A stretch of DNA of 15,248 bases from Moorena sp. SIO1F2 (GTDB taxonomy: Bacteria; Cyanobacteriota; Cyanobacteriia; Cyanobacteriales; Coleofasciculaceae), in assembly GCF_010672755.1 (NCBI RefSeq), contig NZ_JAAHFV010000136.1, positions 1 to 15,248 on the forward strand, written 5' to 3'. Positions 1 to 11,576 of this stretch are shown here, in pieces (position 1 is the stretch's first letter; each line of letters starts with the position of its first letter). Under the pieces are notes generated by a model. It saw only the letters and a program-made list of their open reading frames with translations, had not been told where the DNA came from and searched no databases. The translations under genes and the position numbers were made by a program.

Positions 1-1110
1 ACATTCTTCCGATCTCTCATTACTCCTATCCCATCGACGGAAAAAACGTGGAAGAGATTTTTGTTTAAACTGGTAGTAACGCTCTGATACTTGACAAAGA
101 TTTATCGTAGCTTGCTTGAATTCACCTTGACTAGCGAGCTCTTCTATAGCATAGGAAAACTGCAATTGATCTAACATTGACTGACATAGCTTGGGAAAAG
201 CCTTATTTTGACTCTTTATCTTTCTAAGTTGCTCTATTTGTTCTTTTCTGGTAATAAATTGGCGTCTGCATATGTCCTGAGGAACAAGGTTTTTTAGTTG
301 ATCGTCTGCTCTTCTAGCACTAGTACACTGAAATACACCAAAGGTAATGACTAGAAACAAGGCGATCAAGCCACCCCAAAAACTAATGGGTGATGGGATT
401 CTGCTAGTTGATGGGGTAGCCGAGGTTGTGGCTTGGTCTGGCTCTAAAGGTACTACAGTTGATTGGTTGGGCTCGTCAGTTGTCAGATCTGGGTGTTTGG
501 GCTCGTCAGTTGTTAGATCTTGGTGTTGAGTAACTGGGGTGATTGATAGGTTAGGAAAAGCCATGGCGATGGCTTGATCAGTAGCATCTGTCGTCAGCTC
601 AGATGCCAACCAATAGTCTGTACTGGTCAACTGTGCTAACTCTTGAGCTACCCAGTTGAGATTAAAAACAGCCTCATAAATACGGTTAGAAACTTTTAAA
701 TTTCCCCCCTGGTTAATCACCACACCGGAGTTGAGCAACACTTTTTGTTCCCAACTGTCATTTGCCATCATGGCTCCCTGCAAAATTTTCTGATACAGCC
801 GCAGGAATTGTTCTTCGAGCAAGAAACTACGAATATCTTGCAGAAGTTCAGCGGCTTCCTGAGTTTCCCAATTTTCAACGAAGTGAGTTTTGACGAGTTC
901 TTCGACTTTAAGAGCTTCCTCACCAACAGGGATGGGAGATTTAAAGTCAAGGATAACTTGACAAAGCTTCTGGGTCAAAAAAGGCTGAGAGCCAGTCCAT
1001 GCCAGTACCTCGTCTAAGATAACATCAGGGTTGATCAGATGTTCCGCCAATGCGGGTTTGAATGGTTCGAGGATTTTAGCCACCTCAGGTTTATCCTGCT
1101 TAGAGGTCAT
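1..1110 (-). CDS. Hypothetical protein, 3' end runs off the window (>370 aa). The N-terminal ~190 aa resemble the GxP/winged-helix region of cyanobacterial STAND (AAA-like) ATPases. A Thr/Pro-rich tandem-repeat linker, one TM helix and a C-terminal domain follow.
   Basis: By hand translation of the minus strand from ATG at 1110-1108 (MTSKQDKPEVAKILEPF...) there is no stop codon down to position 1. A TGA lies in frame just upstream of the ATG. Motifs WTGSQPFLTQKLCQ and NRIYEAVFNLNWVAQEL are present. A hydrophobic stretch ISFWGGLIALFLVITFGVF is present. The ORF is missing from the track only because it is edge-truncated. Confidence 0.6.
   Translation of the reverse strand, partial: MTSKQDKPEVAKILEPFKPALAEHLINPDVILDEVLAWTGSQPFLTQKLCQVILDFKSPIPVGEEALKVEELVKTHFVENWETQEAAELLQDIRSFLLEEQFLRLYQKILQGAMMANDSWEQKVLLNSGVVINQGGNLKVSNRIYEAVFNLNWVAQELAQLTSTDYWLASELTTDATDQAIAMAFPNLSITPVTQHQDLTTDEPKHPDLTTDEPNQSTVVPLEPDQATTSATPSTSRIPSPISFWGGLIALFLVITFGVFQCTSARRADDQLKNLVPQDICRRQFITRKEQIEQLRKIKSQNKAFPKLCQSMLDQLQFSYAIEELASQGEFKQATINLCQVSERYYQFKQKSLPRFFRRWDRSNERSEEC
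467..526. repeat. 30-nt tandem direct repeat, two copies, in frame inside the 1..1110 minus-strand CDS. It encodes DLTTDEP(K/N)... repeats in the linker.
   Basis: ttgggctcgtcagttgtcagatctgggtgt is followed immediately by ttgggctcgtcagttgttagatcttggtgt. Confidence 0.8.
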
Positions 1111-1241
1111 TTCATTCCTTGTGTATTCCAGACTATTTTTCCTTCAAACATATTTTGTGATAGTCTTAAATTTTGGATCAAGATTAACAAGGAATTTCTA
1201 TGACCTACAAGCCAGGTTATCGGTAAGACATGGGGTTTCGA

Positions 1242-1586
1242 CTACATGTCCATTACATCCAACCCCTCTGATGGCATAACCTTTCCCCCATAGGACTTAA
1301 CTACATCTTCAAACAAGGGCATATCATCCTGTGGGATTCCCACTACTACTACCATTTTGGCATATTCCTCTGCTCCTTCTTCCTTGTATTCTATTTGCTC
1401 GAAGGGCAGGTCTGTTGTCCAATCGTCTAAATTGCTATTAATCATAGGGATGTTGGGCAACAGTTCTTCAACTGGGATAGCGCGAGGTTTAAAAGGTAGA
1501 TCCACGCAAAATCGAGGCAGTGCCTGATGAGAAAAATTAACGAAATCCACGGGATTGGTAAAGACGACGGATACTTGGACTTTCAT
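1242..1586 (-). CDS. Hypothetical acidic protein, 114 aa.
   Basis: Complete ORF in the track (MKVQVSVVFTNPVDF...). It is co-oriented with and 130 nt upstream of the 1..1110 CDS, so it is a possible operon partner. No recognisable domain and no clear SD. Confidence 0.45.
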   Translation of the reverse strand: MKVQVSVVFTNPVDFVNFSHQALPRFCVDLPFKPRAIPVEELLPNIPMINSNLDDWTTDLPFEQIEYKEEGAEEYAKMVVVVGIPQDDMPLFEDVVKSYGGKVMPSEGLDVMDM

Positions 1587-1870
1587 AATCTATGCTATGC
1601 TATTCAATCTATTGAGACCGATTTGAATTAATACATCATAGCAAAGATAAGCAGTAAGCTTACCCCGGGCTGTTGGCGTAGCCTGCCGCCAGGCATAGCA
1701 CGGGGGCTTTCGCCCAGGCAACAGGCGCGTTGGTTTTCAGTACCCCTAGCTAACTAACGCCCTTAGACTCCCAATTAATTGAGCCTAAGGGTTAAGGGCT
1801 GAACCTCTAGGTCTGCTTACTCTACGGAAACCCGTAGCTTCTACAACCGAGTCAATTCCCGGACGACCCC

Positions 1871-1948
1871 ATTGAGAATTAAGAATTGAGAATTGAGAAT
1901 TGAGAATTGGTATTTCTGAATTCTTGATTCTTGATTCTTGATTCTTCA
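1871..1948. repeat. STRR-type heptamer tandem arrays: GAATTGA/AATTGAG about x4.5 (1871-1910), immediately followed by TTCTTGA x4 (1921-1948).
   Basis: Read directly: attgagaattaagaattgagaattgagaattgagaattgg ... ttcttgattcttgattcttgattcttc. Confidence 0.9.
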
Positions 1949-2232
1949 ACATTGCTCCGATTTACGTATCACTCGCCGATACTAACCTACTGGCCTAGCC
2001 GTTTTCTCCGGAGCTAAGAGTGCCTTGGCCAATTTCAACCTATATCTATTATACTTGACTGGGGTTAAAACTGCTATGCCGCTTCATCCCGGAGACGAAA
2101 CCTTTGTTTCTTACGTGAGACAGCCTCTGACTTGCAGTCATGCCAAATCTGGGTCTAATAGCACCGTTAACCAAACTGGTAATATGAACAGTATATTATA
2201 TCGCAATGACTCAATTTAGGAACTGATGCCTG

Positions 2233-2628
2233 GTGAATAAAGACGTATCAAGCAGTTTGGTTTACGAGTTCCAGCCTCATCAGATTATTTGCTTAGAGCA
2301 TGACAATACTCGTTTATACGCTGAAGTTATCGAATTTGTGTCATCGCGACAAATGTGTTGGGTGCGTTCTATGATATTCGTCACCTTGCATAGTCAAGAG
2401 CCTGTGCCAGTGAAACCCCCTGAACAGCTTACTCTTTACGACCTACGCTCTGGACCGGATTTACTTTGGCCAGCGAGTTTATTACGACTAGCCTTAGACA
2501 CTGAAGTAATTCCCCTCTTGGTTCGGTTAGATGACCCTGATGTCAATGTAGAAAGTGACCCTGATGCTCGCCAGCAACTAAGTTATTTTATCTGTGCAGT
2601 TTGGCAAGCTTATCCAGACAAGTTTTAA
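2233..2628 (+). CDS. Hypothetical protein, 131 aa. GTG start at 2233; alternative TTG at 2257.
   Basis: ORF track. Protein-like composition, no recognised domain. First internal Met is about 40 codons in, so a non-ATG start is required. Confidence 0.4.
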   Translation: MNKDVSSSLVYEFQPHQIICLEHDNTRLYAEVIEFVSSRQMCWVRSMIFVTLHSQEPVPVKPPEQLTLYDLRSGPDLLWPASLLRLALDTEVIPLLVRLDDPDVNVESDPDARQQLSYFICAVWQAYPDKF

Positions 2629-2779
2629 GTTTTGTTAATGGTTAATCGGTCATAGGACTTTGCCAACTCCATGGTGATCTGATCACGACTCAAGCAGTAG
2701 CAAGTCAGACCCCTTAGGAGAGTAAACTACAGTTGTAGGGGTTTTGCCACATGTAGCTGTCAGAGCTTGCCCCAACCCT

Positions 2780-2818
2780 GAAAGTCATGGCTAAAAGTCA
2801 TGGCTAAAAGTCATGGAG
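2780..2818. repeat. 12-nt tandem repeat AAAAGTCATGGC, about x3.
   Basis: gaaagtcatggctaaaagtcatggctaaaagtcatggag, located between convergent ORFs. Confidence 0.8.
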
Positions 2819-2868
2819 TAGTTACCAAGCCTCCGAGCTGGTCTAGCCTTAGTTTATAACCACTTTTT

Positions 2869-3063
2869 CTAGTGACTCGGAACTAGCTGTACGCGACCAG
2901 CATCCATCTCAGACATTAATAATTCCAGTGCTTCGTAATCCACATCAGAGATGTAACCCGTTTGAGTTAGTTCGTAGTTAATTGCATTCTCTATATCAGG
3001 AGTCAACTGCCTAATATAGAGGGCTTTTTCTACTAGTTGACGAATAACAAAGGTAGTTTTCAC
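2869..3063 (-). CDS. Small hypothetical acidic protein, 64 aa, GTG start.
   Basis: ORF track. Start codon is rc(cac)=GTG with an in-frame TAA two codons upstream. No SD. Confidence 0.3.
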   Translation of the reverse strand: MKTTFVIRQLVEKALYIRQLTPDIENAINYELTQTGYISDVDYEALELLMSEMDAGRVQLVPSH

Positions 3064-3282
3064 AATTACTTACCCACAATTCCATATAAATTTATTGTCT
3101 TCTGAAGTTACTAGCCACTATAGTGATCTTTATCTTATTGGTATGTGATCTAAATCACTGATAAGGTGGATTTGTACTCTCTTAAATACATATTATAAGC
3201 CTTTTGGACTTAACTCATAAAGCTTAACCTGAACGTAAGAAGCTATGCCGTTTCAAGGGTTAGAGGTATTGAAGTTTAGGTG

Positions 3283-3362
3283 CGACCCGTTCCCGTAGCG
3301 TCGGCTTTGCCCAAAGGTGCGACCCAAGGGCGATTTACTCGCCCTTGGAGGCGCGCACCTAA
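3283..3362. repeat. GC-rich nested inverted-repeat element: outer arms AGGTGCG/CGCACCT, inner perfect hairpin CCAAGGGCG-ATTTACT-CGCCCTTGG. SDR/MITE-like or a small structured RNA.
   Basis: ggtgcgacccgttcccgtagcgtcggctttgcccaaaggtgcgacccaagggcgatttactcgcccttggaggcgcgcacct. The 10-mer GGTGCGACCC occurs twice here and as its reverse complement at 7321-7330. Confidence 0.6.
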
Positions 3363-3710
3363 GGCAGTTATAAGGACATACTGCTTAGTACTACTTGCCT
3401 CTACACCCTAGTTAACGTTATACTTATCTAAAGCTAAACATTTGGCTCAAGCCTATAAAAAAAGTCTTATATTTCTATGTCAGGGCAGCTCTATTTAGTG
3501 AATGTAACAAAAATTATAAAAATTTAATCCCTACTTATAGGCATGAAATGAGCGATGCTCTTAGCCACTTAGACCATCGGAAATGAAAAATAAATAAATT
3601 ACTTAACTTGAAAAAAGTAATATATGATACATTTTGTTGATGGTAAGTTTTATGAAGATTTCAAAAACCATTAGCCATCTGTAAAGATTCGGCAAAGTAT
3701 CTCAGAAGTG

Positions 3711-3735
3711 GTATGGAATTAGCAAAATTCCATAC
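3711..3735. promoter_or_regulatory. Perfect 10-bp inverted repeat GTATGGAATT-agcaa-AATTCCATAC, about 60 nt upstream of the STAS gene. Candidate operator or TF binding site.
   Basis: Read directly: the arms are exact reverse complements with a 5-nt spacer and lie in an AT-rich promoter region. Confidence 0.45.
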
Positions 3736-3794
3736 TATCTTCAATATATTCTCTAGAAAATTTTATTGGATTTGACCAAGTGAGGATTCTGCTC

Positions 3795-4127
3795 ATGACA
3801 CAGGCGACCCTGAGTGCAAAATTAAGAATTATTCAACCTTCCGGTCATATTAACGCTTCTAATGCAATTGAGTTTAAAAGTCAGTTGACAGAAGCTGTGG
3901 TGGCTGCTGAGGATTCGGCTTTGTTGGTTGATATGCATAAGTTAGAGTCTCTCGACAGTGCTGGCTTAATGGCCTTAATTCATGCCCTGAAGCTAGCAAG
4001 AAGTCTAGAGAGGCGCTTTGGTCTTTGCTCCGTAGCTCCTTCAATTCGCATTATGCTGGAGCTAACTAAATTAGATGGGGTGTTTGAGATTTTTGAGAGC
4101 CATGAGGCTTTTGCTACAGCCCTCTAG
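3795..4127 (+). CDS. STAS-domain anti-sigma-factor antagonist (SpoIIAA-like).
   Basis: Motifs QPSGHINASNAIEFKSQL...LLVDMHKLESLDSAGLMALIHALKLARS...IMLELTKLDGVFEIFESHEAF are typical of anti-anti-sigma STAS proteins. ATG at 3795 lies 8 nt after GAGGA (3782-3786). The track's GTG at 3780 is an in-frame alternative. Confidence 0.8.
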   Translation: MTQATLSAKLRIIQPSGHINASNAIEFKSQLTEAVVAAEDSALLVDMHKLESLDSAGLMALIHALKLARSLERRFGLCSVAPSIRIMLELTKLDGVFEIFESHEAFATAL

Positions 4128-4375
4128 GGGGTTGGAGTAGGTTGGGAAGCTAACTCAATGGCTCTGAGTGCAGCAAAATAATAGGAAATCTAAGGAAGAT
4201 TAAGTGCTTACAGCGATGATGATGGGAGGAGATAGGGAAATACCAGTCAAGAAGTCTGGTGGTTCTTATCTCCCTCACTTCATCCAACTTCACCCAACCC
4301 GATCTCTACCCTGAGTACTGATAAAATGAATGGTGGATCAGGGCTAACTGCATTGAAAGCAGTAATAAAGTTTCT

Positions 4376-7210
4376 ATGGGAATCACTGTAGAGGAAATAC
4401 TAACACCAGACATCAACAGACCAGCCCGTTACTTAGGTAACGAGTTGGGAGCAGTCCATAAACCTTGGGAAGAAGCTGAGGTACGCTGGGTATTGACTTA
4501 TCCAGAAATCTATGAAGTGGGCGCTTCTAACTTAGGCCATATCATCCTCTACAATATATTGAATTGTCAACCTAGGCAGTTATGCGATCGCGCCTATCTA
4601 CCAGCGCCAGACTTGGCAGCTAAATTACGTTCCACTCAAACTCCTCTGTTTGCTGTCGAGAATCGGCGACCTCTGACAGATTTTGATATTATTGGCTTTA
4701 GCCTTAGCTATGAATTAGGGGCAACCAACATCTTGGAAATGTTGGATTTGGCAGGAATTCCTCTTACCTGGAAAGACCGTGCTGAGTTTGATATATCGGA
4801 AATCCCCCTAATTTTTGCAGGTGGACAAACGGCGACATCGAATCCTGAACCCTATGCTGATTTCTTAGATTTTGTTGATCTTGGCGATGGGGAAGAATTG
4901 TTGCCAGAGATTGGCTTAGTAATCGAAGAGGGCAAAGCAGCTGGCTTAAGTCGAGAAGCGTTACTCCTGGATTTGGCTCAGATACCAGGGGTGTATGTCC
5001 CCCAATTCTATGATATGACTGAGGATGGCTCAGTTAAACCCAACCGCCCTGATGTGCCGAAGCGGATTTTGCGGCGTGTGGCTACACCGATGCCTGCCTA
5101 TGCTATTGGACTAGTACCCTATATCCAAACGGTTCATGACCGACTCAAGATCGAAGTGCGGCGGGGCTGTACTCGCGGTTGTCGGTTCTGCCAACCTGGG
5201 ATGCTGACTCGACCAGCGCGGGATGTGGCACCAGAAAAAGTGGTGGAAGCTATTGAAGAAGGGATGCGTGCTACAGGGTATAACGAGTTTTCCCTTCTAT
5301 CCCTGAGTTGTTCCGATTACCTGGCTCTACCAGCGGTGGGGATGGAAATCAAAAATCGTCTTAAGGATCAGAATATTTCCTTGTCCCTACCGAGTCAGCG
5401 GGTAGACCGCTTTGATGAAAATATTGCCAATATCCTAGGGGGAAATCGCCAGAGTGGCTTGACCTTTGCCCCAGAAGCAGGAACTCAGCGGATGCGGGAT
5501 ATTGTGAATAAGGGACTGACTAATGAAGAACTGCTCAGGGGAGTAAAGACGGCATTTGAGCAAGGCTGGGAGAAAGTCAAGCTCTATTTTATGATTGGTT
5601 TGCCCGGTGAAACGGATGCGGATGTGTTGGGGATTGCGGAAACGGTGCGTTGGTTGCAGCAGGAGTGCCGTGCCAAAGGGAGGAAAACCCTTAAGTTTAA
5701 CATAACTGTTTCTAATTTTACCCCAAAACCTCACACCCCATTCCAGTGGCATTCCGTATCGACTTCGGAGTTTAAACGCAAGCAGGAATTGCTCAAACAA
5801 GTATTTGGTCAGATCAGGGGGGTGAAGGTTAATTACACCGATGTTCGGATTTCGGCCATGGAAGATTTCGTGGGACGGGGTGACAGACGCTTAAGTGCGG
5901 TGGTGCGCCGTGCTTGGGAATTGGGGGCAGGGATGGATGCCTGGATGGAAAGCTTGGATCGGGCATTTGCTGCTTGGGAAAATGCGATCGCTTCATCAGG
6001 TCTAACCTGGAAATATCGCCAAGTAGAAAATGGCGAATGGAACGTGATGGCGGGTGTAGAAGAGTTGCAAGTTGGAAGGTTGAAGGTTGAAAGTTCAGAT
6101 CAACCAGCTAACCTACAACCAGCTAACCTACAACCAACTAACCTTGGCCAAAAGGCCACGCTACGCGAACAACCGTCTAACCTTGGCCAAAAGGCCACGC
6201 TACGCGAACAACCTTCAACCCTTCAACCTTCAACCCTTCAACCTTCAACCCTTCAACCTTCAACCCTTCAACCTTCAACCCTTAACGCCCTTGATGCTCC
6301 CTTGCCTTGGGATCATATTGATACGGGAATTGATAAGAATTGGCTCAAGGAAGATTTACAAAAGGCCTTAGATGCAGCAACGGTACCGGATTGTTCCTTT
6401 GATGGGTGTTCTCACTGTGGTGTGTGTGGGATTGATTTTGGTCATAATGTAGTGATTGACCCGCCGCAGATTCCGCAATTTGCTGGTCACTTTAAACCCA
6501 ATACTAATAAGGATCAGCGGCTGCGGGTTTGGTTTGGAAAGTTGGGGGATATGACCTTGTTGGGTCATCTGGATTTGGCAAGTCTGTTTGAGAGAGCAGT
6601 AAGACGGGCGTCACTACCAATTCGCTATAGTGGGGGGTTTCGGGCTAATGCTCGGATTATGATTGCTAATGCATTGCCCTTGGGAGCGTCTAGTAGTGGG
6701 GAGATTGTGGAGTTTGAGTTAACTGAGAAAATGCCAGTTGAGGAGTTTAGGGAAAGGCTGGTGTCTGAGTTGCCTATAGAGATTCCGGTGTATGGGGTTG
6801 AAGCAGTGGATTTGAAGGAACCTGCTGGAACTCAGCTGTTGGAAAAGGCTGAGTATTTGATTCGAGTTGAGGCAATGTCATCGGTGTCTTGGGAAGAGTG
6901 GCAGGGTTGGATTGAAGCAATTAAGGGTAGTAAGGAAATTTGGTGGGAGCGGTTTACGAAGTCGGGTAAGAAGCAGTGGGTGAATTTATGCGATCGCTTA
7001 TTTGAGTTCGAGGTGATGGAACCCCAAAAACCCAAAGATGGTGAAGAGGAGGTTGCAGAGTCTGGGGTAGTTTTGCAGTATGTGGGGAGTTGTTTGAATG
7101 ATGGCACCATGTTGCGACCAGAGCATATTATTTATATGTTGGATCAGGTGGCGCAGCAGGAGTTTCGTTTGTTGCATGTTCATCGGCAACGGTTGATTCT
7201 GCGCAATTGA
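4376..7210 (+). CDS. Fused radical-SAM protein, 944 aa: an N-terminal TIGR03960-type B12-binding radical-SAM domain (CTRGCRFC = CX3CX2C) joined to a C-terminal TIGR03936/DUF2344-type module. The linker carries an in-frame repeat insertion.
   Basis: N-terminus MGITVEEILTPDINRPARYLGNELGAVHKPWEEAEVRWVLTYPEIYEVG, the radical-SAM cysteine triad, and C-terminal RVWFGKLGDMTLLGHLDLASLFERAVRRASLPIRYSGGF match the two families from memory. Confidence 0.8.
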   Translation: MGITVEEILTPDINRPARYLGNELGAVHKPWEEAEVRWVLTYPEIYEVGASNLGHIILYNILNCQPRQLCDRAYLPAPDLAAKLRSTQTPLFAVENRRPLTDFDIIGFSLSYELGATNILEMLDLAGIPLTWKDRAEFDISEIPLIFAGGQTATSNPEPYADFLDFVDLGDGEELLPEIGLVIEEGKAAGLSREALLLDLAQIPGVYVPQFYDMTEDGSVKPNRPDVPKRILRRVATPMPAYAIGLVPYIQTVHDRLKIEVRRGCTRGCRFCQPGMLTRPARDVAPEKVVEAIEEGMRATGYNEFSLLSLSCSDYLALPAVGMEIKNRLKDQNISLSLPSQRVDRFDENIANILGGNRQSGLTFAPEAGTQRMRDIVNKGLTNEELLRGVKTAFEQGWEKVKLYFMIGLPGETDADVLGIAETVRWLQQECRAKGRKTLKFNITVSNFTPKPHTPFQWHSVSTSEFKRKQELLKQVFGQIRGVKVNYTDVRISAMEDFVGRGDRRLSAVVRRAWELGAGMDAWMESLDRAFAAWENAIASSGLTWKYRQVENGEWNVMAGVEELQVGRLKVESSDQPANLQPANLQPTNLGQKATLREQPSNLGQKATLREQPSTLQPSTLQPSTLQPSTLQPSTLNALDAPLPWDHIDTGIDKNWLKEDLQKALDAATVPDCSFDGCSHCGVCGIDFGHNVVIDPPQIPQFAGHFKPNTNKDQRLRVWFGKLGDMTLLGHLDLASLFERAVRRASLPIRYSGGFRANARIMIANALPLGASSSGEIVEFELTEKMPVEEFRERLVSELPIEIPVYGVEAVDLKEPAGTQLLEKAEYLIRVEAMSSVSWEEWQGWIEAIKGSKEIWWERFTKSGKKQWVNLCDRLFEFEVMEPQKPKDGEEEVAESGVVLQYVGSCLNDGTMLRPEHIIYMLDQVAQQEFRLLHVHRQRLILRN
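6071..6290. repeat. Composite in-frame repeat insertion inside the radical-SAM CDS. Components in order: GGTTGAA x3-4 (6071-6098); a 15-nt repeat CAACCAGCTAACCTA about x3; a 39-nt tandem duplicate containing the GGCCAAAAGGCC palindrome plus ACGCTACGCGAAC (6140-6212); TTCAACC(C) x~10 (6214-6284). TTCAACC is the reverse complement of GGTTGAA.
   Basis: Read directly. Encodes ...VGRLKVESSDQPANLQPANLQPTNLGQKATLREQPSNLGQKATLREQPSTLQPSTLQPSTLQPSTLQPSTL... Confidence 0.85.
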
Positions 7211-7487
7211 GAAATTTGGTGTGGCATTGCTGAATCTTCGGATGAATATGAGTGGGGTGGGCATCCTGCCTGCCCAAAAAGATCCGGTGCGCTTGACCCA
7301 TTAAGAATTAAATTCGCCACGGGTCGCACCGTCAGGAACGGGCAAGATGCCCATTCCACAAAAGTCTTCAAATCATTCCATTATTAAGCAACGCTGCCGG
7401 GAGAGGAGTTGCTGCTTCAAGGAATGGTATAATCAAAAGAAAACCACTGCTTTGATAAGGAAAGCCAATGGTACGGGAGTAACCAAA

Positions 7488-7524
7488 ATTAGCCATTAGC
7501 CATTACACATTACCAATTACCAAG
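7488..7524. repeat. STRR-type heptamer run: ATTAGCC x2, ATTACAC, ATTACCA x2.
   Basis: attagccattagccattacacattaccaattacca. Confidence 0.8.
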
Positions 7525-7563
7525 AATTATATTCTCACTGAGCTAAATTGATCTAGCTAACAA

Positions 7564-8430
7564 TTACTTATTATTTCTAATCCTACCATTAGGCATAATA
7601 GTGTTACAGAAAATAGCATCATTTAATTCAGCCTTAGCTAATTTAGCCTTTTTAAGATTAGCATGGCTAAAATTAGCCTCACTCAAATCAGCATCATGAA
7701 AGTCAACACCTTCTAAATTGGCATAACTTAGGTTTGCGCCCCTCAAGTCACTATTATACAGTCTTGCACCACTCAAATTAGCATGACTAAGGTTAGCGCC
7801 AGACATTTCCTCATAACCAAGGTTGATATTTTTCAAGTCTAAACCGCTTAAGTCAGCCTCTGCACAAATAAAGATTGCTCCTGCTTTTGATGGGTTAAAT
7901 CCAGTCGGAAACTCAGTGCATGACGTATAGATAGCTTTAGTAAAATTTATACTACTAAGGTCAGCTTTTTTCCAGCCATCAACCCCTAGCATACGGGCAT
8001 AACTGAGGTTAGCATTGCTCAGGTCAGAATCACCTAGGTAAACGTCACATAAGGTAGCATAAGTAAAATTGGCATCCGTGAGCTTACTACCAGCCATATA
8101 GATTACAGATAAATCAGCATAGCTCAGATCAGTACCACTAAAGTCGCAGTTTTCCAAGGTTGATTCAGATGCTACTAGATGACTCAAGTTAGCCTTAGTG
8201 AGGTTGGAATTTTCGATAGTGGTTTCATATAGGTAAACATTCCTCAAGTTAGCATGACTTAGATCCACATCATCCCAACTAGCTTCCTCTAAATCAGCAT
8301 TACTCAAGTCAGCATAATTTAGACAAACACCCTTGAGGTTAGTACTTTTCAAGTTAGCCTTTTTAAAATTAATACCAGAAAAATCTCTTTCACCGGCTTC
8401 GTAGCGTTTTAGGAATTCATCACGATTCAT
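7564..8430 (-). CDS. Pentapeptide-repeat protein, 288 aa.
   Basis: Protein is dominated by A(D/N)LSxANLxxA pentapeptide units (ANLSHANLSGARLYNSDLRGANLSYANLEGVDF...). ATG at 8430 is preceded by AAGGGG. Confidence 0.9.
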   Translation of the reverse strand: MNRDEFLKRYEAGERDFSGINFKKANLKSTNLKGVCLNYADLSNADLEEASWDDVDLSHANLRNVYLYETTIENSNLTKANLSHLVASESTLENCDFSGTDLSYADLSVIYMAGSKLTDANFTYATLCDVYLGDSDLSNANLSYARMLGVDGWKKADLSSINFTKAIYTSCTEFPTGFNPSKAGAIFICAEADLSGLDLKNINLGYEEMSGANLSHANLSGARLYNSDLRGANLSYANLEGVDFHDADLSEANFSHANLKKAKLAKAELNDAIFCNTIMPNGRIRNNK

Positions 8431-8626: not shown

Positions 8627-8937
8627 GTGCCGATCAGCAGATGAAATTGCTCCCAACTCCATAAACTTGACGTAGTCATAACGAGTTTTGGTTATTTTAG
8701 CAGAACAGAAAAATAAAGGTTAGGTTAGTTTTATAGGGAGTTAATTTGCTGTCAGGTTACAAAATAGTTGATTGTTGATTAGGCTTTAGGGATAAACCAT
8801 GAACTATAGTAATCCTACATGAATCGTGAAATTTCCTGATCCGAAGTTACCTTGTAAAAAAATTCTGCTTTAATTGTGTCTGACTACTTACGACCTATAA
8901 AGGCAACTTAATAATCCAGTTCGATTAGACCAAGACT

Positions 8938-9813
8938 ATGACTACAACTGAGCGTAAAACAGAGAATAAAATGGAAGTGCCTAGGACAACTAGTGAAGTT
9001 ATTCGCATCAAACCTCAACAGTTTATTCATGTGCTAGACAACAACACCGGTGTTACCCGACTGGAGGTTGGTCCTCAAACCATTACCCTTCGCGATCACG
9101 AGCGGCTGATCTTAAAACCTGAACCGATGATTATTGTGCCGCCTCGGTATTATTGTGTGGTTGCTAATCCGTTACTCCGGGATGAAGACGGTCAACCCAT
9201 TGCTGATCAGCATGGTCAAATTCGACTGCGCTACGGTGATCTGGAAATTCGTTTCGCGCAAGATCCGTTTCCCCTTTATCCAAACGAGAAACTAGTAGGG
9301 GATGTCACCCAACTGGCAGTAGTCGAGACCAATCAAGCACTGCGTCTGAGAGCAATTCGGGATTTTACCGATACCGTTACGAGAATACTTGATGGAGAAA
9401 CCCAGACTGAAACAATTAACCGTTTAGCAGGTGATGAATGGCTATTTGAAGGACCTGGAACCTATATTCCCCGAGTGGAGGTGGAAGTAGTTGAGACAGT
9501 AACAGCTGAGGTGATTAAACCTAACCAAGCCTTACACCTGTTAGCACGGCAAAATTGCACCGATCGTCAAAGGAATAGACGTAGAGCAGGTGAAGAATGG
9601 CTCGTTAGAGAAGAAGGAGCCTATTTACCTGGTGTAGATGAAGAAGTAATTGGCATTATTAATGCTTACATTTTGACAGAACAAAAAGCATTACATCTCA
9701 AAGCTAAACGCACCTTTACTGATATTTTGGTCGTCAGCGTAAAGCTGGAGATGAATGGTTGGTCACCTTTGAAGATGCAGAAATTCATATTCCCGATGTT
9801 TATGAAGATGTAG
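8938..9813 (+). CDS. Major vault protein (MVP) homologue, N-terminal part (MVP repeat domains). Homology stays in this frame up to about 9722. A single -1 frameshift separates it from the next ORF.
   Basis: Aligns from memory with human MVP: FIHVLDNNTGVTRLEVGPQT, VPPRYYCVVANP, RLRYGDLEIRFAQDPFPLYP, GDEWLFEGPGTYIPRVEVEVVE, KALHLKAKRTFTD. After TD the sequence no longer resembles MVP. Confidence 0.85.
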   Translation: MTTTERKTENKMEVPRTTSEVIRIKPQQFIHVLDNNTGVTRLEVGPQTITLRDHERLILKPEPMIIVPPRYYCVVANPLLRDEDGQPIADQHGQIRLRYGDLEIRFAQDPFPLYPNEKLVGDVTQLAVVETNQALRLRAIRDFTDTVTRILDGETQTETINRLAGDEWLFEGPGTYIPRVEVEVVETVTAEVIKPNQALHLLARQNCTDRQRNRRRAGEEWLVREEGAYLPGVDEEVIGIINAYILTEQKALHLKAKRTFTDILVVSVKLEMNGWSPLKMQKFIFPMFMKM

Positions 9814-11576
9814 TGGGAGAAGTCACGATTACTACCCTGAGCGATCACGAATGGTGTATTGTGGTTGACCCCATTGATGAGTCTGGTAAACCTCAGCTGG
9901 GTATGCGAGAGATTCGCCAGGGGAGAACATCATTTTTCTTGCATCCCGGTGAGTCCTTGGAGAATGGTATCCAAAACATCTATGTTCTCAGTGAGCTGGA
10001 AGCACTGTTGCTTCGAGCCAAAGAAGCTTTTAATGAGGGAGAAGGTGACCAGGTCATTACTCATCAACCAGGGGATTTATGGATGATTGCTGGGCCACAA
10101 GATTATATTCCCCGTGTGGAAGTGGAAGTGGTTGAGAAGCGTCAAGCCATTCCCCTCGATAAGAATGAAGGTATCTATGTGCGTAATATTCAGACTGGTG
10201 AACTCAAGCTGGTCGGTGGTCCTCAGGCTTATATGCTCACTCCCTATGAGAAGCTTTGGGAAAAAGAACTGCCATCGGTAGTTGAGGAACTGTTGATGCA
10301 AAAAATCGACCCATTGTCTGGACGTGGTCAGCATTCTTTAGCTGGGGGCGATCAGTCGGAGGGAAAATCAGGAGTGCGCCAACGTCTATCCCAACGGGAT
10401 AAGACTAGAGCAGTTGTGTTTCATATTCCTCAAAATGCTGCTGTGCAGCTCCATGACTATAAAAACAGAACTGCCAGAACTGTATTTGGACCGGACTTGG
10501 TGATGCTCGAACCAGATGAAGCCTTTACGGTACTTTCTTTATCAGGTAGCAAGCCCAAACGACCTAATGTCATCAAATCCTTAGCCTTATTACTCGGTCC
10601 TGATTTTATGACCGATATCTTTACCGTAGAGACAGCAGACCATACCAGATTGCAGCTACAGCTGTCCTATAACTGGTACTTTGATGTGGACAGACACGAT
10701 GAACAAACTGCAGCCAGACTGTTTCAAGTACCTGATTTTGTGGGAGATACTTGTAAAGCGATCGCATCCCGAGTGCGGGGTGCTGTAGCAGGGGAAAAAT
10801 TTGATGAATTTCACCGCAATTCAGCCCGGATTATCCGACTGGCGGTGTTTGGCACTGATGAAGAAGGTCATATTCGAGATGAATTTCGTTTCCGAGCCAA
10901 TAACCTAGTAATTACCAATATTGACATTCAGTCAGTGGAGCCAGTGGATGAAGAAACCTTAAGGAGCTTGCAAAAGTCAGTGCAGCTAGCGATTCAAATT
11001 ACCACTGATGCTCAAGAAGCTGCTGCACGCCAAGATGCGGAACGGATTGAGCAAGAAGCGAAAGCCAGGTTGGAAAGGCAAGTAATTTTGGATCAAAGTG
11101 CAGCAGAAGCAGAACGCAAAAAACTTCTAGAATTACAAGCAGAAAATATAGCCATTGAGTCTACAGGTCAGGCAACAGCAGAAGCAAGAGCTAAGGCTGA
11201 AGCGGCTCAGATTCAAGGACAATTAGCAGTTAACTTGGCTCAGCAAGACGCCGAGGCGGCTCGGATTCGCAATGAAATGGAGTTAGCTCAACTCAAAGCA
11301 CGTCAGGAAGCTGAATTAGCCCATCAACAGAGTTTGAATAACCTAGAGATTGCCAAAGCTGAGCGTATGGCTCACATTAAGAGTGAAGAATACCGACAGA
11401 AAGTAGAAGCAATTGGTCCTCAAACCATTCAAGCGATCGCACAAGCAGGTCCGGAAATGCAGGCAAGACTTCTAGAAGCACTTGGTATCCAGAGTGTTTT
11501 GATTACCGATGGCAAAAATCCCATCAATCTATTTGGTGCAGCTAATGGTCTGATTACTCCCCCAACTTCTAACTAA
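9759..11576 (+). CDS. Major vault protein homologue, C-terminal part (remaining MVP repeats, shoulder, cap-helix, cap-ring). MVP homology in this frame begins at 9723, directly after a TGA at 9720-9722.
   Basis: ...GRQRKAGDEWLVTFEDAEIHIPDVYEDV, KTRAVVFHIPQNAAVQLHDYKNRTARTVFGPDLV, RPNVIKSLALLLGPDFMTDIFTVETADHTRLQLQLSYNWYFDV, VPDFVGDTCKAIASRVRGAVA and EAIGPQTIQAIAQAGPEMQARLLEALGIQSVLITDGKNPINLFG are near-identical to eukaryotic MVP from memory. Combined length is about 879 aa. Confidence 0.85.
   Translation: MVTFEDAEIHIPDVYEDVVGEVTITTLSDHEWCIVVDPIDESGKPQLGMREIRQGRTSFFLHPGESLENGIQNIYVLSELEALLLRAKEAFNEGEGDQVITHQPGDLWMIAGPQDYIPRVEVEVVEKRQAIPLDKNEGIYVRNIQTGELKLVGGPQAYMLTPYEKLWEKELPSVVEELLMQKIDPLSGRGQHSLAGGDQSEGKSGVRQRLSQRDKTRAVVFHIPQNAAVQLHDYKNRTARTVFGPDLVMLEPDEAFTVLSLSGSKPKRPNVIKSLALLLGPDFMTDIFTVETADHTRLQLQLSYNWYFDVDRHDEQTAARLFQVPDFVGDTCKAIASRVRGAVAGEKFDEFHRNSARIIRLAVFGTDEEGHIRDEFRFRANNLVITNIDIQSVEPVDEETLRSLQKSVQLAIQITTDAQEAAARQDAERIEQEAKARLERQVILDQSAAEAERKKLLELQAENIAIESTGQATAEARAKAEAAQIQGQLAVNLAQQDAEAARIRNEMELAQLKARQEAELAHQQSLNNLEIAKAERMAHIKSEEYRQKVEAIGPQTIQAIAQAGPEMQARLLEALGIQSVLITDGKNPINLFGAANGLITPPTSN

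Follow-up and report, generated by a model that had tools for sequence, protein, structure and literature searches.

A one-base deletion in a short T-run divides a major vault protein gene on a contig of Moorena sp. SIO1F2

A vault protein gene in two reading frames

The window, i.e. the whole stretch of 15,248 nucleotides that was analysed, is a complete contig of the metagenome-assembled genome (MAG) Moorena sp. SIO1F2 and carries on its forward strand a gene for a homologue of the major vault protein (MVP). A single uninterrupted MVP frame is absent from it, and a change at 9723-9728 leaves two open reading frames, 8938-9813 and 9759-11576, with the following features:

8938-9723, + strand: N-terminal part of the MVP homologue, 262 codons; original frame, Vault_2 and Vault repeats, last residue D262
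9720-9722, + strand: TGA of the C-terminal frame, the last stop before MVP homology restarts
9723-11576, + strand: C-terminal part of MVP, 617 codons read in the -1 frame, stop at 11574-11576
9724-9813, + strand: out-of-frame tail ILVVSVKLEMNGWSPLKMQKFIFPMFMKM, 29 codons, with TAG at 9811-9813 closing a 291-aa product
9725-9728, + strand: T4 run, T5 in every Moorena relative, the site of the one-base deletion
9759, 9813 and 9903, + strand: TTG, GTG and ATG, in-frame start candidates for the C-terminal piece

The first frame ends its homology with ...LHLKAKRTFTD, in which the codon of D262 is GAT at 9721-9723, and these 262 residues match human MVP as far as its residue 237. The TGA at 9720-9722 is the last stop in the downstream frame and consequently sets the 5' limit for any frame change; directly after it the -1 frame reads YFGRQRKAGDEWLV..., and its translation from 9723, YFGRQRKAGDEWLVTFEDAE..., is free of stops up to 11576. 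The three start candidates of the C-terminal piece are weak and incidental. The original prediction had placed the switch from frame 1 to the -1 frame after KRTFTD, at 9723, which proved exact to the base, and the TGA and T4 run on which it relied are both present in the letters of the window at 9720-9729, TGATATTTTG. The 291-aa open reading frame is entered in RefSeq as WP_293042565.1, a 'hypothetical protein'.

Upon addition of one T to the run a stop-free open reading frame of 879 codons is obtained, in which D-I-F-G-R is regained. Residues 18-873 of the repaired protein align with residues 4-849 of human MVP, collinear from end to end (E = 8.2e-298), and the repaired junction reads ...alhlkakrtftdifgrqrkagdewlv against ...alhlrarrnfrdfrgvsrrtgeewlv in the human protein; the human letters at this place, ...RRNFRDFRGVSRRTGEEWLV, are matched by the repaired protein and are the same stretch that the original prediction had quoted. 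In Pfam searches PF01505 was found both in the first piece (5.4e-42) and in the second (2.4e-21), PF11978 (MVP_shoulder) in the second (7.2e-54), and PF17794, PF17795 and PF17796 exceed their gathering scores. The first piece thus holds Vault and Vault_2 repeats and the second Vault, Vault_2, Vault_3, Vault_4 and the shoulder, together with a cap-helix region, since the alignment with human MVP extends through residues 647-849, the C-terminal helical part of that protein. Its repeats, shoulder, cap-helix region and collinearity place the putative repaired product in the major vault protein family, and its identity with MVPs of known structure leaves no doubt about the fold.

Among eukaryotic MVPs (human and rat; PDB 4V60 and 7PKZ) the homologue finds its counterpart over residues 18-873 with all the Pfam MVP domains, but the host is a bacterium and the frame is broken at a position equivalent to human 237/238. 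This break lies approximately 16 residues past the end of the R3-R4 fragment 1Y7X, that is, early in repeat 5. The cyanobacterial homologue and eukaryotic MVP share about 55% identity, and a vault particle is reported for no cyanobacterial MVP in PMC3762200 or bioRxiv 10.1101/872010.

The neighboring genes, which encode a radical-SAM/DUF2344 protein, a pentapeptide-repeat protein, a Kef-type antiporter and the start of rplC, fit a cyanobacterium. The window encodes a 733-aa Na+/H+ exchanger and a 131-aa hypothetical protein, both of which, like the 291-aa MVP fragment, are matched exactly by proteins of the SIO1F2 MAG. The hypothetical protein lies at 2233-2628 in a gene-poor region (1-4375) which holds small open reading frames only, among them one of 115 aa at 3780-4127; those at 745-1017 and 1031-1279 adjoin each other on the same strand in different frames and look like non-coding noise. 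Within the radical-SAM/DUF2344 gene (4376-7210) an in-frame tandem-repeat linker at 6101-6283, with periods of 15 and 39 nt, encodes PANLQ..., two copies of NLGQKATLREQPS and five of STLQP. Its copy number varies across Moorena genomes by 24-nt blocks and other sizes, and the repeat contains GGCCAAAAGGCCACGCTACGCGAA, a motif similar to one within the insert in the MVP gene of M. bouillonii PNG described below. The neighborhood upstream of MVP (4376-8430 in the window, compared with 1-6400 of loci L057 and L061) varies within the genus. Radical-SAM and pentapeptide-repeat genes are found in the window, with which locus L001 is collinear, and the radical-SAM gene is accompanied by ABC-transporter and TerB genes in L059; in L057 and L061 genes for a LanM-type lanthipeptide synthetase (DUF4135 and LANC_like) and FlmR/OhkR_N genes are found instead. 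Downstream, the antiporter followed by the rplC operon is conserved.

The junction and the gene in other genomes

A scan with one genome per species returned 56 loci encoding an MVP homologue, mainly from filamentous cyanobacteria with a few from Chloroflexota, and each of the 48 which could be aligned over the junction has exactly one base more than the window. The sequence at this point is GATATTTTTGG (T5) in every Moorena relative and GATATTTTGG (T4, 9725-9728) in the window, and three Moorena loci among the 48 read ACTGATATTTTTGGTCGT as against ACTGATATTTTGGTCGT in the window. Three further Moorena assemblies (L057/L058, L059/L060 and L061) are continuous in frame at this site; T5 was read directly in L061, and DIFGR at the protein level in Moorena sp. 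SIOASIH and in Moorena producens 3L. Hence the claims that exactly one T is missing and that its restoration gives D-I-F-G-R, as the relatives read, both stood, and a search of the orthologous locus for a T4 run with a continuous frame, which had been proposed as the check on them, found T4 in none of the relatives. In having such a frame-breaking indel against intact close orthologues, the copy in the window resembles a frameshift pseudogene.

Across the full gene the nearest relatives reach no more than about 97.5% identity in nucleotides and differ by at least 12 amino acids, and none of them therefore represents the same population a second time; where the genes are collinear, the Moorena copies are 97.1-97.5% identical, with the one-base deletion in the window. 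Metagenome contigs scanned for the junction with either T4 or T5 permitted yielded neither allele, the frameshifted tail is covered by no protein in a collection of 5.8 billion sequences (best query coverage 93%), the window had no megablast match among plasmids, and a second assembly of the SIO1F2 sample is not on record.

The homologue of M. producens 3L (F4Y3B4 / EGJ28590.1, 879 aa, annotated as 'colicin uptake protein') is the copy for which a cyanobacterial MVP has already been described (PMC3762200, Daly et al. 2013; bioRxiv 10.1101/872010). It equals the repaired product in length, precedes the same downstream gene and is identical at the junction apart from T5, with 12 amino-acid differences and 97.3% nucleotide identity; unlike it, the copy in the window is interrupted, and lacks the one T, so that open reading frames of 291 and roughly 600 aa remain. 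What is added here, from comparison of the sequences, is an absence of relaxed selection and independent disruptions of MVP in other Moorena genomes.

In fact, the repaired gene displayed a dN/dS of 0.065-0.12 against its intact relatives, and of 0.07-0.13 downstream of the shift, while the intact copies gave 0.09-0.11 among themselves. Relative to five Moorena loci six codon changes are private to the copy in the window, of which four are synonymous and two non-synonymous; each of them lies upstream of the shift and none downstream, and L151, one of the two amino-acid changes, is also found in Moorena sp. SIOASIH. Accordingly, neither dN/dS, private changes nor stops revealed relaxed selection or additional lesions after the frameshift, and the constrained dN/dS together with the lack of downstream private changes indicates a lesion which is either very recent or artefactual. 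When approximately 9 kb of the window's coding sequence was set against three Moorena relatives, no indel other than that in the T-run broke a frame, the remaining coding indels being either multiples of three in the radical-SAM tandem-repeat linker or alignment artefacts, and the assembly is thus not full of homopolymer errors. In a sibling MAG from the same project, L001, 12.3 kb were free of private frame breaks.

Other copies of the gene are altered at other places. In M. bouillonii PNG (L043, 7419-8122, corresponding to 10355-10750 of the window) MVP has been broken up: some 190 bp, in part masked as N, are inserted after the position that corresponds to 10355, and about 345 bp of MVP are exchanged for about 460 bp of unrelated DNA with the hairpin ends TTGACACTCCCCGCCCTGGAAGGACGGGGATTC ... 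AAAGCCGTCCTGTAAGGACGGGGC. An M. producens MAG (L061, ctg92747_7.03x) has insertions of 524 bp at 7816-8340 and of 272 bp at 8777-9049, which leave MVP open reading frames of 630, 145 and 113 aa. The first of these and the PNG insert are alike in hairpin termini and 3' junction and different in the interior, and their shared 3' junction lies just 5' of GTAAAGCGATCGC, a HIP1 site. An Rfam search of the L061 insertions gave no match, and they are consequently described as MITE-like rather than as recognisable introns. These two copies share genus, gene and a destroyed frame with the window, but differ in having hairpin-ended insertions of 270-520 bp and a deletion of about 345 bp instead of the loss of one homopolymer base, and in their sites (gene nucleotides ~1420-1815 and 2252). 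Protein P0002 of L059/L060 (863 aa) has an in-frame deletion of 16 residues at ~411-426 and is otherwise intact. Frame changes in MVP are also seen in three cyanobacterial MAGs (L040, ~6447-6453; L047, ~7134-7137; L056, ~6228-6230), elsewhere than in the window, and could be errors or real pseudogenes.

Origin of the one-base deletion

Frameshifts in short homopolymers are both the commonest break of a gene and the commonest error of an assembly. Sequencing error, recent pseudogenisation and slippage had been named as the options for this site, and these are indeed the explanations to be weighed. We hypothesize that the sampled SIO1F2 DNA probably underwent a real, very recent and non-programmed loss of one T, by which the T5 homopolymer would have become T4 (9725-9728) and MVP would have been truncated after residue 262. 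The predicted product would comprise R1-R4 and ~16 residues at the start of R5, would end in a nonsense tail of 29 aa, and would be devoid of the shoulder and of the cap-helix region, both of which are required for vault assembly in eukaryotic MVP. Loss of function is the expected outcome if the allele is real, and we infer that T4 is a true allele with abolished function and not an error of assembly.

Alternatively, the organism may have T5 and an intact 879-aa MVP, the contig having lost one T through an artefact of sequencing, library or assembly, an explanation which we consider quite possible while leaning against it. A real allele and an artefact make the same prediction, a lone homopolymer indel, and sequence alone does not separate the two. 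The lesion consists of a single base in a homopolymer and recurs in none of more than 50 relatives, T4 having no second sighting in metagenomes, proteins or assemblies, which counts against a real allele; likewise, the fully constrained appearance of the remainder of the gene is equally expected from an artefact. Two of the MAGs with frame changes in MVP, L040 and L047, have contig names suggesting long-read assembly, and illustrate that such breaks may be generated by assemblies. The source is moreover a fragmentary MAG, with a contig of 15 kb, and the authors of the project report most of their assemblies as highly fragmented or contaminated (PMC7825088). SIO1F2 is not named in the text of that paper and apparently does not belong to its 24 high-quality genomes, and its coverage may accordingly be low; the low input and PCR amplification of the libraries likewise count against a real allele.

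The MAGs of the SIO series were obtained with Illumina HiSeq 4000 from low-input, PCR-amplified libraries and assembled with metaSPAdes (PMC7825088). To judge by its name, which follows that series, and by its NCBI description, SIO1F2 was probably sequenced and assembled on the same Illumina/metaSPAdes platform. In Illumina assemblies built on de Bruijn graphs the path of a contig needs read support, and consensus indels at 5-base runs are uncommon. This probable use of short reads and a de Bruijn graph argues against an artefact and in favour of a real allele, as does the lack of any other coding indel in the contig and of a private frame break in the 12.3 kb of L001. The independent breakage of MVP in other Moorena genomes favours a real allele slightly.

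A further explanation, in which the T4 allele is still expressed, either through low-level -1 slippage or with the halves made separately as a split MVP, would mean that a bacterial vault protein is split or recoded by nature, and is in our judgement highly improbable. Slippage would take place on A-UUU-UGG, where tRNA-Leu re-pairs from UUG to UUU and gives D-I-L-G-R, and any -1 shift within 9723-9813, the interval to which a productive shift is restricted, would regain the MVP frame. Nevertheless, an XXXYYYZ slippery heptamer is absent from all frames at 9716-9813, which covers this overlap zone; stimulatory RNA structure was not found 3' of the run (z = 0.16 for 9729-9800 and 0.04 for 9731-9830, against shuffles); and an Rfam search of the window returned no match. 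The shift is shared by none of the 48 junction-aligned relatives, nor by L061, and so nothing has selected for it. Programmed -1 sites, such as those of E. coli dnaX (A-AAA-AAG) and of IS3-family transposases, resemble the present case in that a -1 change is needed for the full-length product, but the present site has neither a slippery heptamer, an upstream Shine-Dalgarno-like element, a downstream stem-loop or pseudoknot, nor conservation in orthologues. Transcriptional slippage and a phase-variable tract were rejected as well, since they call for a long homopolymer, typically of 7-9 bases or more, and the run, T4 here and T5 in the relatives, is far too short.

In the split version, translation would start anew at GTG 9813, a codon in overlap with TAG 9811-9813, and R1-R4 and R5-to-cap pieces would be produced that co-assemble. 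A hairpin at 9694-9753 (CATCTC..AGCT..ACGC / GCGT..AGCT.GAGATG; -19.1 kcal/mol) is more stable than its shuffles (z = -2.9, 1/200) and holds the T-run in its apical loop; however, the slip site is preceded by the 5' arm, which the ribosome would already have unwound, so that the hairpin would be unable to stall it there. Both the GTG and the hairpin sequence also occur in relatives with intact MVP and are probably incidental. A quasi-palindrome-templated mutation was discarded as the cause of the deletion, because the inner stem needs G-U pairs and the hairpin is also present in T5 relatives. The original judgement that programmed frameshifting is unlikely, for want of a slippery heptamer or downstream structure, is therefore upheld, now with the lack of a conserved shift in addition, and the frameshift is an ordinary broken gene or assembly slip.

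Lastly, an old pseudogene in long decay, which might be suspected from the broken MVP of other Moorena genomes, deserves practically no credence in view of a single lesion with no further stops, a dN/dS of ~0.1 in both halves and zero private substitutions downstream of the shift.

Implications for bacterial vault proteins

For surveys of bacterial vault proteins, 8938-11576 is to be counted as one frameshifted MVP gene instead of two hypothetical proteins; in public databases the gene is split already, with the 291-aa piece under WP_293042565.1. The MITE-like insertions and the deletion that break the gene in L043 and L061 suggest that MVP is dispensable in Moorena. If the allele described here is real, it joins these two insertion-disrupted copies from other Moorena genomes, and together they would suggest that cyanobacterial MVP is dispensable and has been lost repeatedly within one genus. 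Such recurrent loss, if true, would be modestly useful for understanding what bacterial MVPs do.
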